Source: Escherichia coli (GTDB lineage Bacteria > Pseudomonadota > Gammaproteobacteria > Enterobacterales > Enterobacteriaceae). From it: a stretch of 64,000 bases of DNA. The notes beneath the pieces are model-generated. The model worked only from the letters and a program-made list of their open reading frames with translations. It ran no database searches and had not been told where the DNA came from. A program made the translations under genes and the position numbers. The stretch is taken from assembly GCF_044324875.1 (NCBI RefSeq), contig NZ_CP172185.1, one strand, 5' to 3'. Below are positions 29,374 to 35,790 of the stretch, piece after piece; positions within the stretch are counted from its first letter, which is position 1, and each line of letters begins with the position of its first letter.

Positions 29374-29811
29374 CTAGTTGAAATAAACAAATGCGCTGTC
29401 AGGAATGACGGACGGCACGCTGATACCGGTGTCCTGACCTGTGGTGTTCAGCAGTCGCCGCCCCTTCACCCGGCCTGCCAGCGCGGTTTTGTGGGTGATG
29501 TCTGCCAGCGCACCTGCAAGCCCAGGGCGGTCATCCTGCCAGACAAAGACCCGCTGTCCGGCGATGATATGGCGGGTACCGTATACCGGGCGGAAACCCG
29601 TGGCGGTGACGGGGAGCGTGCCACCCCCCGTGCGCTCAGCCGGATGGGTGTACAGCCGGTCGTTAATGCCGTTCATGAGGCGGACCATCTCCCACGCACG
29701 TTCACGCATCTCCGCCTGCTCGCTGTACACGGTGACCCGGTGGGTACTGCTGTTGTGAAACCAGGTCAGCGCCACGGTCAGGGCCATGACCAGGGAGAGC
29801 GACCAGCCCAT
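29374..29811 (-). CDS. pilM: PilM
   Basis: ATG 29811 (MGWSLSLVMAL) directly after the pilL stop; position in operon. Confidence 0.55.
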   Translation of the reverse strand: MGWSLSLVMALTVALTWFHNSSTHRVTVYSEQAEMRERAWEMVRLMNGINDRLYTHPAERTGGGTLPVTATGFRPVYGTRHIIAGQRVFVWQDDRPGLAGALADITHKTALAGRVKGRRLLNTTGQDTGISVPSVIPDSAFVYFN

Positions 29812-29813
29812 GG

Positions 29814-30539
29814 TCAGTCTCCCGGTCTGTCGCTGACGTGCACCACACACTGCGTGCTGTTGATGGCTGCATACAGCGGCGTCTGTGCGTCCTGATAGAG
29901 ACGGAAGAGTTCACTGAGCGCGTGGCGGAACTCGCCGGTGAAATGCAGCGGCGCATCGATGCTGTAATTGAGTCTGGGGTTCTGCCAGGCCAGCTGCCAG
30001 GTGCCACCGGCCTGACAGGGAACGGCGGCCACCCACTGCTCAAGACCGGCACGCAGCAGGGTTCCGCGGGCAAGAGTCCAGGTGGTCCGTGCATGCGCCG
30101 GTTGCGGCATGTTTGCTGATTTTTCCGCGGTTTTTTCCTGCAGACTGGTGGTGCCCGGGGTGGCCTGAGACGGACTGAACAGGGTGTTCCGCTCAATACG
30201 TACATGCTTCTTCTCCGTGTCGGTGATGGCGCGGAGCTGATATTTTTTCAGCATGCGTTCCGTAACGTAATTCCACTGGTCATTTCCCTTCCATGACACC
30301 GTGCGGGGCGGCCTGACATCCGGTGCAATGTCAAATGTCCATCCCGGCGGTATCAGTTGCTGCATGGCTTTTTTCAGTGATAACCCTTTACCGTCCCGGG
30401 GAATAAATTTCAGTGCTCCCGGAGCGCTGCTGACCGTGGACGATGAGGGTGCACTGACCTGAGAAGGTGACGGTGCAGCAAAAAGTGGAACAGAAAATGC
30501 CAGCAGCGGCACAATAAGAAGTGGTTTCAGTGGTGTCAT
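29814..30539 (-). CDS. pilL: PilL, lipoprotein, first gene of the pil operon
   Basis: Signal peptide MTPLKPLLIVPLLAFSVPLFA; position at the head of the pil cluster. Confidence 0.6.
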   Translation of the reverse strand: MTPLKPLLIVPLLAFSVPLFAAPSPSQVSAPSSSTVSSAPGALKFIPRDGKGLSLKKAMQQLIPPGWTFDIAPDVRPPRTVSWKGNDQWNYVTERMLKKYQLRAITDTEKKHVRIERNTLFSPSQATPGTTSLQEKTAEKSANMPQPAHARTTWTLARGTLLRAGLEQWVAAVPCQAGGTWQLAWQNPRLNYSIDAPLHFTGEFRHALSELFRLYQDAQTPLYAAINSTQCVVHVSDRPGD

Positions 30540-30591
30540 ATTATGGTCCTGTATCGCACATTTTTTGTGTTTCCTGAGCCTGTATCCGGTT

Positions 30592-30810
30592 TTATTCCGG
30601 CTGAACTCTGCTGCATGAGAATGCGGTGACGTTCACTTTCACACTGAACGATTTACCGGCCTCTTTTTCTTTTAAAAACAGCCTGACGCATTCAGGCTCA
30701 GTCATCGGTGTGTTCTGAAAACGCACCCAGGATACCGGTGCACCACCAGGCTTCAGGATGGTGGCTTCAATCCGGTATTTATGCGGTGTGGTGTCTGTTG
30801 TTGCTGTCAT
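30592..30810 (-). CDS. small hypothetical protein (72 aa) upstream of pilL
   Basis: ORF track only. Confidence 0.3.
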   Translation of the reverse strand: MTATTDTTPHKYRIEATILKPGGAPVSWVRFQNTPMTEPECVRLFLKEKEAGKSFSVKVNVTAFSCSRVQPE

Positions 30811-31336
30811 TCATGGCTCCTGTTGCCGGTTTCCGGTCCCGGAAAAACAGGCGACATCAGCAACAAGGGGAAAAACGCGATGTCGCCTGAAAGGTACTGG
30901 TGCAGCGGTGCGTTGTACGGACGCAGGTCCGCACAACCGGAAATACACGGGATGATTCGGTCAGTGTATTTTCGTGTTGTGCGCCTGTACTGATACGGCA
31001 GGGTGTGATGAGTGTTACCTGTGGCTGCAGGCGCGGCACGTCACTCATAACGTAGCATTCTGTTTCCTCCTCAGCCCGGCTTCAGGGCGTTGCCGCAATA
31101 CCCGATTGTTAAAGAGCCTTACCGGCATGGTGTCCGGTGTCACCGCGCGGATAACGATACGGCGGTGTCTGAAGGGATGATGCTGCGGCGCTCTGCACAT
31201 GGCGACGATTAATTCTTTTTGTGTTTCTGAAAATTTATTGCCGGGAAATTTCTGGTGTGACAGGGTGAATTAATTCTGGTCAGCGACGCTCCTGAGAAGG
31301 CAGAGTGCGCTGACATTTCGTGAACGGAGGAATGCC

Positions 31337-32845
31337 ATGTCCCTGAATCCCACCGATGAACAGTCAGCCATCATTCACTGGCAGGGGGAAAAACTGGTGG
31401 TGAATGCCTTTGCCGGTACAGGCAAAACCAGCACACTGGTGCAGTTCGCCGCAGCCTGCCCTGAGAGCCGGATGCTGTATCTGGCCTATAACCGCGCGAT
31501 TCGTGATGAGGCGGAGCGCCGGTTTCCCTTTAATGTGGAGTGCAAAACCTCCCATCAGCTGGCGTATTCGCGGTTCGGAAAGCATTTCCGGCATCGTCTG
31601 GTGCCGGGGCTGTCAGTGACGGATGTAGCGAGAAAACTGAACACCCGCTACTGGACGCTTGCCCGTGTTGCCATGACCGCGCTGAATCAGTTCATCTGTT
31701 CGGCGGACGTGGCGCCCGGAATGCAGCATATGCCGCCTCCCGACGAGATGAAGGGCATGTCGCCACAGGATGCGCTGCGTGCCGTGCAGATCCTCTGGCA
31801 TGAAATGAGCAATCCGGATGGCAATTTTCCGGTCACTCACGACACCTATCTGAAGCTCTATCAGCTTTCCTCACCGGATCTGTCACGCAGGTGGGATACG
31901 ATCCTTTTTGATGAGGCCCAGGATGCGAATCCGGTGACGTCCGCACTGGTGCTGGGGCAGCGGTGCAGGGTGGTACTGGTTGGCGACCGTTACCAGCAGA
32001 TTTATCGTTTTCGTGGTGCCAGCAATGCACTGTCGCATCCGGCACTGAACGGGGCGGACCGTCTCTGGCTGACGCAAAGTTTTCGTTTTGGTCCTGCCGT
32101 GGCCGGGGTGGCCAGCCAGTTACTGAAGCGTGCCGGCGAGAGCCGTGAGGTGACCGGCAGGGGCGGGGATGATGAAGTGCTGACGGCAGGTGAAATGCGT
32201 GCGCGCGTGAAGGCAGGGAAGATGACCGGTCACAGGGCGATACTGAGCCGGACGGTGGCCGGTGTGATTGGCACCGCACTGATGGCGGCAATGCGTGGCA
32301 GGAAGGTTTACTGGGTGGGGGGCATTGAAGGCTACAGAACGGAGGCACTGGAAGATCTTTACTGGTTTCAGATGGATATGCCGGAGCGGATGCACAGTGA
32401 CAGACTGCGGAAGGACTACCGGGGTTTTGACGAGTACCGTCATATTGCGAAGGTGACGAAGGATGTGGAAATGAATCAGTCCATTCGTCTGCTGGAGCTG
32501 TGCTTTCCGCTGCCGAAGAAACTCGAACTTCTCAGAAAGCACACCGTCACGAATGAACAGGAGGCGGATATCACGGTCTCAACGGCACACCGCAGTAAGG
32601 GACTGGAGTGGTCACTGGTGGTACTCGATGATGATTTTCAGGATATCACCGACCCGCTGATAAGCGAGCAGGAGCGGCGGGATGAAACCAATCTGCTCTA
32701 TGTGGCGGTCACCCGGGCGCGCAGAACGCTGGTTCTCAATGAACTCATGCAGCAGCTGACGGAAGCTGCCGGCGATGGTGGTGCACCCGGAAACGCGCCG
32801 GTGCAGGGGAAGGAAGACGATGGTGTGGAGGGAGAGGATGTTTAA
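31337..32845 (+). CDS. UvrD/PcrA-like superfamily 1 helicase (502 aa)
   Basis: Walker A AFAGTGKTS, Walker B/DEAQD, motif VI-like VAVTRARR; RBS GGAGG upstream. Confidence 0.75.
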   Translation: MSLNPTDEQSAIIHWQGEKLVVNAFAGTGKTSTLVQFAAACPESRMLYLAYNRAIRDEAERRFPFNVECKTSHQLAYSRFGKHFRHRLVPGLSVTDVARKLNTRYWTLARVAMTALNQFICSADVAPGMQHMPPPDEMKGMSPQDALRAVQILWHEMSNPDGNFPVTHDTYLKLYQLSSPDLSRRWDTILFDEAQDANPVTSALVLGQRCRVVLVGDRYQQIYRFRGASNALSHPALNGADRLWLTQSFRFGPAVAGVASQLLKRAGESREVTGRGGDDEVLTAGEMRARVKAGKMTGHRAILSRTVAGVIGTALMAAMRGRKVYWVGGIEGYRTEALEDLYWFQMDMPERMHSDRLRKDYRGFDEYRHIAKVTKDVEMNQSIRLLELCFPLPKKLELLRKHTVTNEQEADITVSTAHRSKGLEWSLVVLDDDFQDITDPLISEQERRDETNLLYVAVTRARRTLVLNELMQQLTEAAGDGGAPGNAPVQGKEDDGVEGEDV

Positions 32846-34367
32846 GCGGTTCAGACGTATGCTGCCCGGCACAAAGGGCACGGAGCCTGGCGTGGTCGCG
32901 CCGGTGATACCGGCAGGGTTTTATGCGCCGCTCACGGCAGAGGCACTGTTATCACCAGAGCACAGGGAGCTGAGGCTCAGGCAGGTCTGGGATAACAATC
33001 CGATGCCCCGTGATGTATACGACAGGATGTGCCTTGAACCACTCAGCCGGCTGCTGCTGAACACCCAGAACGTCCCGGCAACACGGGAAGGACGGTGGTC
33101 CCGTGCCGGTGGATTTGGTGATCTGACGGTACTGTACACCACGTATGCCGTTCGTCTGGCAAGAGGGTACATGTTTCCACCGGATGCGACCCCGGAAGAC
33201 CAGGCGGCTCAGGCCGCAGTCTGGCATGCGGTGATTTTCTGGTCAGCGCTGTTTTACCACCTGCCCCTGCTGGCGCACCTTGAGGGGGAACTGCTGAGTG
33301 GGCGGGGCTGGCAGCCAGGAATTTCTGTGCCTGACGAACCTTTCCGTTTCCGGTTCAGGAAGACGGCGCCGCAGGGTACGGAAGCGCAACAACTTGCGGC
33401 CCTGACTGCCGGCACGCTGTTACCGGACGGCGCAACGGCCTGGCTTGTGACGGCGCCGGGCGCACTGCAGAATCTGGCCGGGGCGCTCTGGCATCAGCAT
33501 CCCGGGATGGCGCTGATTCGTGATGTGCTGCAGGAAGCGGCAAGGCAGACAGAGAGTCCGCTGAATACCTGCGCTGTCACTGCGCCGGTTACTGCGGAGG
33601 CTTCAGCAGACATCCGTCCTGCTGACCCGGTGGTGACCGGCAGCACGGACAGTGTGGTGGCAGTCACTGAGGTGCAGCCGGCAGAGGAGGTGAAGACTGA
33701 GAGCGTGCAGACAGAGACTGAAGGTGGTGGTGAGTCCGCCGGGGCGTCAGAGGTGCCGTCCGCACAGCAGGAACTGACGGTTCAGACAGCGCCAGTGGTG
33801 ACGGCAGATGATGAAGCGGTCAGTGCTGCTCCTGCGGATCAGGACACAGCAATGCTGCTGAGTCTTTTTTCAGCAGATGAGTCCGAAACTGCTGAACCTG
33901 AAAACAGTATTAAATCGTCAGCCGATCGGGACGGCCAAAGTGACGTACCGGCAGTACAGGGAGAACAAACCAGCGTTATTTATCCGGAGGGCGAAGCAGA
34001 TACGGAAGAGGTGGATTTTATTACTTGGCTGAAATCGGGGTTGTCATCGGGGATGATTGAAATAAATACACCTTCCGCGAGAGTGCATTGTATTGCGGGG
34101 TATGTTTTTTTGTGTGTCCCGGATATTTTTTATCTGTATCAGAAAATGACGGGAAGCCGTCGTGACCGCAGGAGTGTTCAGGCGTTGTTTGAACGTTCCC
34201 GTATTCACAAAATCCGGGAAGGTGAGCGTTTTTTCAGCCTGCATCTGTATAGTGTACCTGACAGAACAGGGAGTTATAAAGCTGTAAGCGGATATCTGGT
34301 TAAAAGCCGTTATCTGTGTGGTTATAACGCAGTGCCCGGGGACAGTGAATACATTGCTTTTCCATAA
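32838..34367 (+). CDS. hypothetical protein with central acidic low-complexity region (~510 aa)
   Basis: ATG 32838 overlaps the helicase stop (ATGTTTAA); acidic Glu/Asp/Thr/Ala-rich linker roughly 33580..33990; structured C-terminal domain. Confidence 0.5.
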   Translation: MFKRFRRMLPGTKGTEPGVVAPVIPAGFYAPLTAEALLSPEHRELRLRQVWDNNPMPRDVYDRMCLEPLSRLLLNTQNVPATREGRWSRAGGFGDLTVLYTTYAVRLARGYMFPPDATPEDQAAQAAVWHAVIFWSALFYHLPLLAHLEGELLSGRGWQPGISVPDEPFRFRFRKTAPQGTEAQQLAALTAGTLLPDGATAWLVTAPGALQNLAGALWHQHPGMALIRDVLQEAARQTESPLNTCAVTAPVTAEASADIRPADPVVTGSTDSVVAVTEVQPAEEVKTESVQTETEGGGESAGASEVPSAQQELTVQTAPVVTADDEAVSAAPADQDTAMLLSLFSADESETAEPENSIKSSADRDGQSDVPAVQGEQTSVIYPEGEADTEEVDFITWLKSGLSSGMIEINTPSARVHCIAGYVFLCVPDIFYLYQKMTGSRRDRRSVQALFERSRIHKIREGERFFSLHLYSVPDRTGSYKAVSGYLVKSRYLCGYNAVPGDSEYIAFP

Positions 34368-34397
34368 CAGCACCGGGTCATTCATCCGTTCAGGGAG

Positions 34398-35510
34398 ATG
34401 TATTCCCCTATGAAGAAAGATGTCGAAAAAATAACGTGGGAGGAATTACTCTTTGAGTACTTCCTTGAGAAAAATCTTAAACCTGATACTGAACACAGCT
34501 ACCGCAAAGTTGTCCGTCTGTTTGATAAGTTCCTGGGCGGTGATTCCTGGCCCGGCGATGTCACACCGAGAGACATTCAGCGATGGCGACGTCATATGCT
34601 TAAAGATCAGGGGCGTTCAGTAAACACCTGGAATAACAGAGTGTCACATCTCCGACCGCTCCTGGCGCTTGGGATCAAGAAAAAGTGGTTACCACAGACG
34701 GAAAATCCGCTTGATGGCACTTCAGTGCCCGGGGCATCAAAACAGAAAAAAACGCTCACTGATAAAGAGATGGTCAGGATTTACCGTACAGTTCAGGCTT
34801 TTGCTGAAGCTGAGGCCAATAAGATGGTGATCTGTGACAGGCGGCGCAATGCGATGTACCCTGCATGGTACTGGCTGATCGTGCTGGATACGCTGCGCTT
34901 CACGGGGATGCGTTTTAACCAGCTGAAACATATCAGGCTGAAGGATATTCATGAGGATGAGGCGGTGATTACCCTTCAGCTGGAAGGGAGTAAAACCCGA
35001 CGTGAATGGCGTGTGCCGATTGTGGAATCGTTACGACTTTCACTGAAACATCTTATTGAGTGCGCCCGTGTCAATGGTGCGTCGGATAATGACTATCTCT
35101 TTGATGTCTGCCTGTACAGCGAGCATTACAGTCCCGGGAAATACCAGTACTGTGCCAAAAGAGCGCATCAGTCGGTCAAATCTTTTTTCCGCAGACTGAG
35201 CCGTGAATGTGGTTTTTTTGTCTCGTCACACAGATTCAGACACACACTGGCAACAAAGCTGATGGCGGCACCGGAGCGTAATCTGCACATGGTCAAATCC
35301 ATTCTGGGGCACAGGAGTGTTGCCACCACCATGGAGTATATTGATTTTTCGGTGGAAGTTGCTGCTGAGGCACTGGAGGCTGAACTCGGTTTATCCACGG
35401 ATGAGGCGACAAAAAGACGGATTAAAGAGGCGAAAAAACGCCGTGAGGCCAGTACCGGGAAAAAGGAAAAACAGGAAAGTTCTGGAGGGGAACTTTCTGA
35501 CAAGGAATAA
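34398..35510 (+). CDS. int: tyrosine recombinase / integrase
   Basis: R...HxxR...Y catalytic pattern (HRFRHTLAT, LGHRSVATTMEYI); ~200 bp from the tRNA 3' end; start at 34398 or 34410. Confidence 0.85.
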   Translation: MYSPMKKDVEKITWEELLFEYFLEKNLKPDTEHSYRKVVRLFDKFLGGDSWPGDVTPRDIQRWRRHMLKDQGRSVNTWNNRVSHLRPLLALGIKKKWLPQTENPLDGTSVPGASKQKKTLTDKEMVRIYRTVQAFAEAEANKMVICDRRRNAMYPAWYWLIVLDTLRFTGMRFNQLKHIRLKDIHEDEAVITLQLEGSKTRREWRVPIVESLRLSLKHLIECARVNGASDNDYLFDVCLYSEHYSPGKYQYCAKRAHQSVKSFFRRLSRECGFFVSSHRFRHTLATKLMAAPERNLHMVKSILGHRSVATTMEYIDFSVEVAAEALEAELGLSTDEATKRRIKEAKKRREASTGKKEKQESSGGELSDKE

Positions 35511-35714
35511 ACATGCTTGACATCGGACCAGAATGGTGTAAGCATTTTTGCGTATGCGAGAGCGTGACACCTGTTACCAGCAGGTGCCACGCTTGAGGAT
35601 ACGATACTGAAACCACAGTGTAACCAGACTTACACGGAGATTTCGTTATGACCGGATCCTGTATTAGACGCCCGTTAAGGATCTCATCCCTTAACCAGCG
35701 TACTTTGATGCGTT

Positions 35715-35790
35715 TGGTGCCCGGAGGCGGAATCGAACCACCGACACGGGGATTTTCAATCCCCTGCTCTACCGACTGAGCTATCCGGGC
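35715..35790 (-). tRNA. pheV: tRNA-Phe (GAA), pheV-type, with variant T-stem
   Basis: 76-nt cloverleaf GCCCGGATAGCTCAGTCGGTAGAGCAGGGGATTGAAAATCCCCGTGTCGGTGGTTCGATTCCGCCTCCGGGCACCA; anticodon GAA; located beside yqgA. Confidence 0.9.

Follow-up and report, generated by a model that had tools for sequence, protein, structure and literature searches.

A predicted bidirectional promoter and leader region between the pilus operon and the helicase-relaxase-integrase module of an ICEEc2-type element in Escherichia coli

The gonococcal genetic island encodes the prototype MOBH relaxase, whose substrate is an origin of transfer (oriT) situated between the operon of the relaxase and a divergent operon. 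The minimal oriT is an inverted repeat of 32 nt, of which the structure and not the sequence matters, and the nick lies 3 nt 5' of this repeat (PMC6736028). Among integrative conjugative elements (ICEs), the ICEEc2 type is known from avian E. coli, as cited in a passage of PMC6761156. Among extraintestinal E. coli of birds and humans, elements of this type are frequent at pheV and pheU. They have recently been reported to drive Hfr-like transfer of large segments of the E. coli chromosome (PMC13127887). Here we analysed the spacer between two divergent operons of such an element, at positions 30540-31336 of a stretch of 64,000 nucleotides from E. coli contig NZ_CP172185.1 (assembly GCF_044324875.1), which is called the window throughout. 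The region is uncharacterised in the literature that we searched. We read it as a bidirectional promoter and leader region of the ICEEc2-type element, a real but largely ordinary kind of feature. To back-to-back promoters with an attenuated leader as the whole explanation we assign a probability of about 50%.

The window holds an element of the ICEEc2/PAPI-1/SPI-7/ICEclc family, inserted at a tRNA-Phe gene (35715-35790). Positions 30300-31600 were 100% identical to the E. coli chromosome NZ_CP033635, where the RefSeq annotation describes a complete ICE with TIGR03xxx ICE core genes, TraD, topoisomerase III, ssb, a PFL_4669-family protein and a type IVb pil operon with a shufflon. The spacer was present in 54 of the 5426 complete E. 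coli genomes, on the chromosome in every case. From left to right, the pil operon is followed by a DUF1187 gene, the spacer, a UvrD-like helicase gene, TraI, the integrase and tRNA-Phe. The divergent layout described in the sequence-only reading was confirmed. The first pil gene encodes a TcpQ/PilL-like lipoprotein (29814-30539, minus strand; Pfam TcpQ with E = 7e-14, and RefSeq annotation of the identical region), and from there the operon reads leftward as far as pilV. On the other side, the helicase gene (31337-32845, plus strand; Pfam UvrD-helicase) is succeeded on the same strand by the TraI relaxase of the PFGI-1 class (open reading frame (ORF) 32775-34367; TIGR03760 with E = 5e-57, Pfam TraI_2 and TraI_2_C) and by a tyrosine integrase (ORF 34398-35510; Pfam Phage_integrase). 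The TraI and integrase ORFs end at 34367 and 35510 in the window, versus 34463 and 35506 expected from NZ_CP033635; given this mismatch downstream of the helicase, the window therefore represents a different variant of the element.

The module of helicase, TraI and integrase beside tRNA-Phe is widespread in Enterobacterales, and the cargo to its left varies (YadA-like adhesins, invasin-like proteins, pga genes (pgaD), a methylase, restriction systems and others). The whole spacer, in turn, was common to only one other lineage, composed of 18 E. coli genomes and represented here by L004, with a spacer identity of about 70% and a helicase 82% identical to that of the window. A third spacer lineage was found neither in plasmids nor in 80 genome loci of helicase relatives nor in viral contigs, and none of the helicase variants of 65-78% identity that were fetched singly had the spacer. 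One metagenome scan returned the same two spacer lineages, plus six chance matches.

According to the mechanism that we propose, the AT-rich stretch 31170-31285 would be a compact region of back-to-back promoters on the left border of the conserved helicase-TraI-integrase module. A weak rightward promoter of sigma70 type (TTTCTG-17-AATTCT, start around 31284) would drive helicase, traI and int, and a leftward one (TCGCCA-17-CATCAT, start around 31170) would serve any genes on the left side, which in this element are DUF1187 and the pil operon. The word ATTAATTCT, which occurs twice in this stretch, would play a different part at each place: copy 2 would be the −10 region of the rightward promoter, copy 1 an invariant AT-rich element just upstream of the leftward −35 box, in the place of an UP element or a class II activator. 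The leftward transcript would open with a leader of about 360 nt, comprising a 110-bp block with a Shine-Dalgarno sequence and a mini-ORF and, further on, two hairpins, H2 and H3. How strongly DUF1187 and pil are expressed would then be governed by read-through of H3, in other words by attenuation or antitermination. The sequence-only reading had proposed a control region between the divergent operons; conserved promoter-like modules indeed point both ways out of 31170-31285, and from these we infer promoter activity.

Regions upstream of the helicase gene were aligned, ten sequences from five to six lineages of E. coli, Salmonella and Klebsiella and then 27 sequences from many genera. On the minus strand, the predicted sigma70-like promoter P2(-) at 31177-31205 consists of a −35 box TCGCCA (31205-31200), a 17-bp spacer and a −10 box CATCAT (31182-31177), with a predicted start at about 31170. 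It conforms to the sigma70-type pattern, with hexamers at 17±1 bp, A at −11 and T at −7. The hexamers (TCGCCA or TTGTCA, and CATCAT, CATTAT or CATCCT) and the exact 17-bp spacing were kept in five lineages, between which the spacer sequence was unrelated. Conserved hexamers at 17 nt around a divergent spacer have the look of a classic promoter footprint. In the L090 lineage, TTGTCA-17-CATCAT was the sole promoter-like site found by the promoter scan, and at the equivalent position in the window and in L004 P2(-) was within the six best minus-strand candidates (6.0 and 6.6 bits). All five lineages that bear P2(-) have a leftward gene adjoining, be it DUF1187, a YadA-like adhesin or a 146-aa ORF, and lineages whose left neighbour is oriented in the direction of the helicase gene itself were without this part. 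In several of the E. coli, Salmonella and Klebsiella islands L085-L100, the conserved leftward site would thus face an adhesin gene, which it would be expected to drive; in these islands the module adjoins a yqgA-like (DUF554) gene, a tRNA-Phe neighbour in the reference record. A second leftward promoter-like site, P1(-) (31232-31261, minus strand; GTCACA-18-TAAATT), is lineage-specific. It had the best minus-strand score at the equivalent position both in the window (7.7 bits) and in L004 (8.0 bits), and its −10 box sits in a segment of about 23 bp limited to the two spacer-sharing lineages. A check by eye for sigma54, sigmaE and IHF consensus sequences gave no convincing match.

On the helicase side, the proximal 140 bp or so showed three conserved blocks in the 27 upstream regions: AATTT(C), then GTTwwTnnTGG 16-17 nt further on, and finally CAGnnT with a T-run and the ribosome-binding site. 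In most lineages a sigma70 weight-matrix scan placed the best −10 box 62-73 nt ahead of the ATG, on this second block. Among the hexamer pairs so obtained were TTTCCA-16-TTTAAT in Pectobacterium, TTTAAT-17-TATAGT in L090 and GTAAAA-17-TAAATT in L004. In the window the corresponding predicted promoter, P_hel(+), extends over 31249-31277 on the plus strand, with TTTCTG (31249-31254), 17 bp and AATTCT (31272-31277), and its predicted start lies at about 31284. As the hexamer matches are weak, P_hel probably requires an activator. It would be followed by the 5' leader of the helicase gene (31300-31339, plus strand), with GCAGAGTG at 31300-31307, GGAGG at 31326-31330 and ATG at 31337; the CAG..T of this leader was kept in the 27 sequences.

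The repeated motifs that had been noticed near 31207 and 31273 are two exact copies of ATTAATTCT on the plus strand, at 31208-31216 (copy 1) and 31269-31277 (copy 2), and these are the sole two in the 64 kb of the window. By itself the repeat does not exceed what chance would give. Of 2000 first-order Markov shuffles of the 797 bp, 72% contained at least one exact direct repeat of 9 nt, and in 8 of 100 whole-window shuffles at least two copies of ATTAATTCT occurred. It is conservation that lifts the copies above chance. Copy 1, which on the minus strand reads AGAATTAAT, was identical in the L004-type spacer alignment, and GAATTAAT was invariant, 2 nt upstream of the leftward −35 box, in five lineages. 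Copy 2 aligned with conserved block 2 of the helicase upstream regions, had one mismatch in the L004 type and overlaps the −10-like block of P_hel, AATTCT being its last six bases. With respect to the helicase promoter, copy 1 is at about −76 to −68; with respect to P2(-) it is at −46 to −38, where UP elements or class II activators are typically found, and we tentatively assign it to these by position only. Its distance to the leftward −35 box was fixed at 2 nt, whereas that to the rightward −10 block, like the distance between the two word positions, was 56 nt in the window and 41 nt in the L085 lineage. Since only the distance to the −35 box is fixed, copy 1 is tied to the leftward −35 and not to the rightward −10.

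This bears on the idea, put forward in the sequence-only reading, that the two copies are repeated operators by which one island-encoded regulator would co-control both operons. A divergent promoter region is where a common regulator would be expected, and the traI promoter of ICEclc does belong to a regulon driven by the element-encoded BisDC (PMC9286271, PMC12409273). Both copies were kept in the sister lineage, copy 2 lies within a perfect 10-bp palindrome GAATTAATTC (31267-31276), and in three sister lineages (L085, L090 and L096) the position of copy 1 is inside an inverted repeat, GATGA-ttaat-TCATC. Nevertheless, a shared operator appears unlikely to us. Conservation in related islands held for the blocks in which both copies sit, but the same word stood at both positions only in the two ICEEc2-type lineages: sister lineages kept GATTAATTC at the distal position and read GTTATTTGT, GTTAATGAT or GTTTTTTAT at the proximal one, and lineages of the L085, L087 and L006 types were without the word there. 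The spacing varies as described. ATTAATTC did not recur at other intergenic regions of the stretch searched, its only other matches in the window being at 21145/21147 in pilV and 22280 in a transglycosylase gene, nor did it occur in the 48 kb of L002, which stop short of the element's far left. Of the 27-bp BisDC/BisC motif of ICEclc, a comparison by eye gave two loose look-alikes, GCCGGTTTCCGG (30824, plus strand) and CCGGTTGTGCGGACCTGCG (30945-30927, minus strand), which in L004 were not kept or had shifted spacing. Together with the insignificance of the 9-mer repeat alone, this makes the two copies of ATTAATTCT appear to belong to two opposite promoters and not to one repeated operator. 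A protein may still bind at either site. A second perfect GAATTAATTC palindrome was seen at 21145-21154, inside pilV. An exact pair of the 12-mer TTTTTGTGTTTC, at 30562-30573 between DUF1187 and pilL and at 31216-31227 directly after copy 1, was put down to chance because its second copy is not kept in L004 and its first falls in a segment that L004 lacks.

The opposite view, that the shared 9-mer has no sequence-specific role and is a coincidence of AT-rich promoter DNA, for example generic curved or H-NS-bound DNA, we regard as very unlikely. An exact 9-mer pair no more than 100 bp apart did turn up in 24% of the 2000 shuffles, and GC content falls to 0.42-0.46 across 31150-31300. The high-affinity consensus of H-NS is reportedly CG(t/a)T(a/t)AATT (Lang et al. 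2007), and copy 1 of the window presumably fits it. The CG of this consensus is, however, lost in L004, and copy 1 remained base-for-base invariant in five lineages while the neighbouring spacer diverged, which points to a sequence-specific constraint at least there. In the reading with two opposing promoters, the repeated 9-mer would be a by-product of their AT-rich elements; it is a minor feature.

Contrary to the sequence-only reading, the small ORF called doubtful there is a real gene. It lies at 30592-30810 on the minus strand, encodes 72 aa and is the first gene downstream of the leftward leader. Its product matches Pfam PF06688 (DUF1187) with E = 6.8e-23 and is annotated as RefSeq WP_000127557, and a GGAG ribosome-binding site (30817-30820) is found 8 nt ahead of the ATG at 30810. 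Since this ORF is genuine, the control region of about 800 bp shrinks to noncoding parts of 526 bp (30811-31336) and 52 bp (30540-30591). Amino acid identity with the sister lineage was about 70%. Homologues at 53% identity occurred in 545 plasmids, of which 525 were classed as conjugative; the one record examined was of the IncI2 type. In the IncI2 record (L115 1090-1305), the DUF1187 gene comes directly after a gene for a CaiF/GrlA-family regulator, with which it overlaps, and the pair heads a row of genes toward the type IV secretion genes. A more distant copy adjoins ralR in Rac-type prophages. These surroundings suggest a regulatory or leading-region role for the small protein. In eight genomes (E. 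coli EC554 and seven others) the match was 7 bp longer and two DUF1187 coding sequences were annotated; in EC554 (L003 1553-1778), the one record examined, the gene is broken into two short annotated ORFs, and the spacer of these genomes was 98.9-99.0% identical. Longer coding sequences in the spacer (ORFs of 63 and 51 aa on the minus and of 68 aa on the plus strand) were discarded, as they are lost in L004, which has indels that are not multiples of three. A terminator-like hairpin within DUF1187 (30698-30680) was not kept in L004 and was judged to be due to chance.

Between P2(-) and DUF1187, conservation was unevenly distributed. Over 31001-31118 the identity between window and L004 in 40-nt windows was 78-90%, versus 40-62% in the flanking spacer. 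The near-invariant central block (31009-31118) equalled the helicase coding sequence in conservation and was confined to the two ICEEc2-type lineages; a longer reading frame is excluded by two indels of 2 bp each. It contains a minus-strand mini-ORF of five codons (MLRYE), from ATG at 31058 to TGA at 31041, with AGGAGG (31071-31066) 7 nt before. In L004 the mini-ORF reads MLRRE and the Shine-Dalgarno spacing is 9 nt. A weak hairpin (31008-31014 / 31042-31048) has the stop codon of the mini-ORF in its 5' arm.

Downstream of the block on the minus strand, H2 (30929-30982) is a long hairpin with about 17 pairs, the loop of which varies. Its folding energy was −23.6 kcal/mol (z = −4.0) in the window and −24.6 kcal/mol (z = −2.8) in L004; counted over the two lineages, the 17 pairs were 98% paired, with 2 compensatory pairs. 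A hairpin scan found an alternative hairpin at 30912-30937 on the minus strand, formed by GTTGTACGGAC and GTCCGCACAAC and, by eye on the alignment, only partly kept in L004. It and H2 are mutually exclusive, because both use the segment GCACAAC; no such alternative overlaps H3. H3 (30843-30889, minus strand) is a perfect 11-bp inverted repeat, with arms 30848-30858 and 30879-30889, and runs into TTTTT at 30847-30843, about 22 nt before the ribosome-binding site of DUF1187. Its folding energy was −22.1 kcal/mol (z = −4.15) in the window and −20.1 kcal/mol (z = −4.84) in L004. The T-run is found on the minus strand only (T5 in the window, T6 in L004), and stem and T-run were kept while the flanks were not. 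H3 thus has the pattern of an intrinsic terminator, a stable GC-containing stem directly followed by a U-run on the transcribed strand, and we predict termination there. The terminator scan called it in L004 (12-bp stem, 8-nt loop, T6) and missed it in the window solely since the loop exceeds the limit of 8 nt set for the scan. RNAalifold further paired the conserved GGCUCUU (31118-31112) with the Shine-Dalgarno sequence of DUF1187 (30821-30815), with one compensatory change, so that a sequestration of the latter would be possible in this model.

These features suggest, as their best reading, either an attenuator-bearing leftward leader, about 360 nt long, or a separate small RNA. In the latter case the unit would be a gene of about 330-380 nt ending at H3, and transcription of DUF1187 and pil would be independent of it or result from rare read-through. 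A noncoding stretch, its indels not being multiples of three, is in fact bracketed by a promoter-like site and a terminator-like hairpin, and the invariant, unstructured 110-nt block could serve base-pairing or protein binding. We nonetheless find a small RNA gene improbable: no promoter-like site fits into the 22 nt or so between H3 and the ribosome-binding site of DUF1187, complementary targets elsewhere in the element were no longer than 12-13 nt, and no Rfam family matched. A more ambitious view, that the leftward unit is an undescribed cis-acting attenuator or small RNA gating the expression of DUF1187 and the conjugative type IV pilus in ICEEc2-type elements, or alternatively that H2 is part of an oriT, is one that we put forward tentatively and at well below even odds.

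Several observations weigh against back-to-back promoters with an attenuated leader. The hexamers of P_hel in the window match at only 2/6 and 3/6 positions, with A at −11 and T at −7 kept, and the assignment is alignment-based; the site is outside the three best-scoring rightward candidates of the window and rests on alignment to other lineages. P2(-) matches at only 4/6 positions in each hexamer, a promoter scan of the window spacer at 9/12 matches returned none, and the second leftward candidate P1(-) muddies the prediction of the start site. As for the leader, the central block folded no better than shuffles on either strand (z = +1.45 and +1.31) and had no Rfam match, and a structured RNA was discarded for these 110 bp. 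More generally, Rfam 15 gave no family with E ≤ 1 in 29500-32500 and chance-level matches only with E ≤ 5 in 30780-31340. The loop of H3 is large in the window (13-20 nt), which is unusual for efficient terminators. Finally, covariation in the leader comes from two lineages only, each change being a single event, and is suggestive only.

The position of the spacer next to the relaxase operon also raises the question whether it is the oriT of the element. In that case H2, or else the invariant block, would be the site that the MOBH-like TraI, whose gene lies just downstream, binds and nicks. For ICEEc2-type and ICEKp2-type elements no oriT has been mapped, and the authors of the ICEKp2 study state expressly that they did not find one (PMC6761156). 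H2 would be a suitable structure, being a stable hairpin with compensatory changes and a variable loop, placed near the relaxase operon as in the gonococcal island. We consider this doubtful, since H2, H3 and the block were restricted to the two lineages with DUF1187 on the left; they were absent upstream of modules whose relaxase domains are 65-67% identical, compared with 73% for the lineage that shares them. The strand-specific T-run of H3 is typical of a terminator, and a much better family-wide candidate hairpin exists between int and tRNA-Phe. A second copy of spacer or block elsewhere in the element, as a dual oriT might have had, was looked for and discarded, with chance matches of 10-13 nt only.

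This other hairpin is located at 35557-35599, between the integrase stop codon and tRNA-Phe, and has the composition CGAG + AGCGTGACACCTG + ttaccag + CAGGTGCCACGCT + TGAGGA. Its flanks are near-invariant (GATCGAGAA and CTTGAGG), and the stem sequence is lineage-specific. It was present in about 40 loci across Enterobacterales, in most of them 50-175 nt after int. In 19 sequences, 9 of the 15 pairs were compensatory and 92% paired, and none of 500 shuffles reached the observed score. The hairpin has no T-run and no Rfam match, and direct repeats, GTGTAAGCA (35535-35543) and GTGTAACCA (35618-35626), flank it. It is a candidate for an oriT, an accessory site of attP or a 3' RNA hairpin, and by its covariation and distribution would be a better oriT or att-site candidate than the spacer.

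Two loci of spacer-sharing type, L102 and L103, have the same spacer and a helicase 82% identical, yet the rest of their module is mosaic in comparison with positions 32775-35510 of the window. The C-terminal domain of TraI was 76% or 35% identical, the integrase 82% or 47%, and PilL 42-44% only. Recombination breakpoints therefore flank a core of helicase, spacer and DUF1187. In Citrobacter braakii (L026 2158-3070), the translations of two ORFs on the minus strand, situated upstream of the helicase, look by eye like FlhC and FlhD. Activators of this FlhC/FlhD-like kind are used by SXT and relatives of ICEclc. No gene of this kind was annotated in the examined part of the window's element.

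For further work, our analysis supplies testable coordinates: two opposing predicted promoters, a candidate attenuator before the pilus operon and a covarying hairpin on the integrase side.

Several known systems can be set beside this arrangement. Back-to-back sigma70 promoters with an UP-like element share with it the conserved hexamers at 17 bp, the divergent spacer and the invariant AT-rich word at −38 to −46, although here the hexamers are 4/6 matches only and the UP assignment is by position only. Attenuator leaders resemble the predicted leftward leader in the length of the 5' leader, in a small upstream ORF that has a strong Shine-Dalgarno sequence, in hairpins that exclude each other and in a terminator-like hairpin, followed by a U-run, right ahead of the first structural gene. 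They differ in that the mini-ORF here is about 150 nt upstream of the terminator, with no overlap, that no antiterminator competing with H3 was found in the spacer and that no ligand, tRNA or protein partner is indicated for a leader predicted from sequence. The yaf-traI / ltgX-traF spacer of the gonococcal island is likewise a divergent spacer directly upstream of an operon for a TraI_2/TraI_2_C relaxase, with promoters both ways, here predicted, and a stable inverted repeat (PMC6736028). This likeness is one of layout; the hairpins here are lineage-specific rather than family-wide, one of them with a terminator-type T-run, and in contrast to the gonococcal MOBH TraI the relaxase is of the PFGI-1/ICEclc class (TIGR03760), the NCBIfam MobH model reaching 74.5 bits against a cut-off of 200. 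ICEclc is an element of the same family, with the TIGR03xxx ICE core genes, the PFL_4669-family protein and the same class of TraI. In the element described here the helicase gene precedes traI and the integrase comes after, unlike in ICEclc; there, too, traI faces opposite ORFs, and its weak promoter needs element-encoded activators (PMC9286271).

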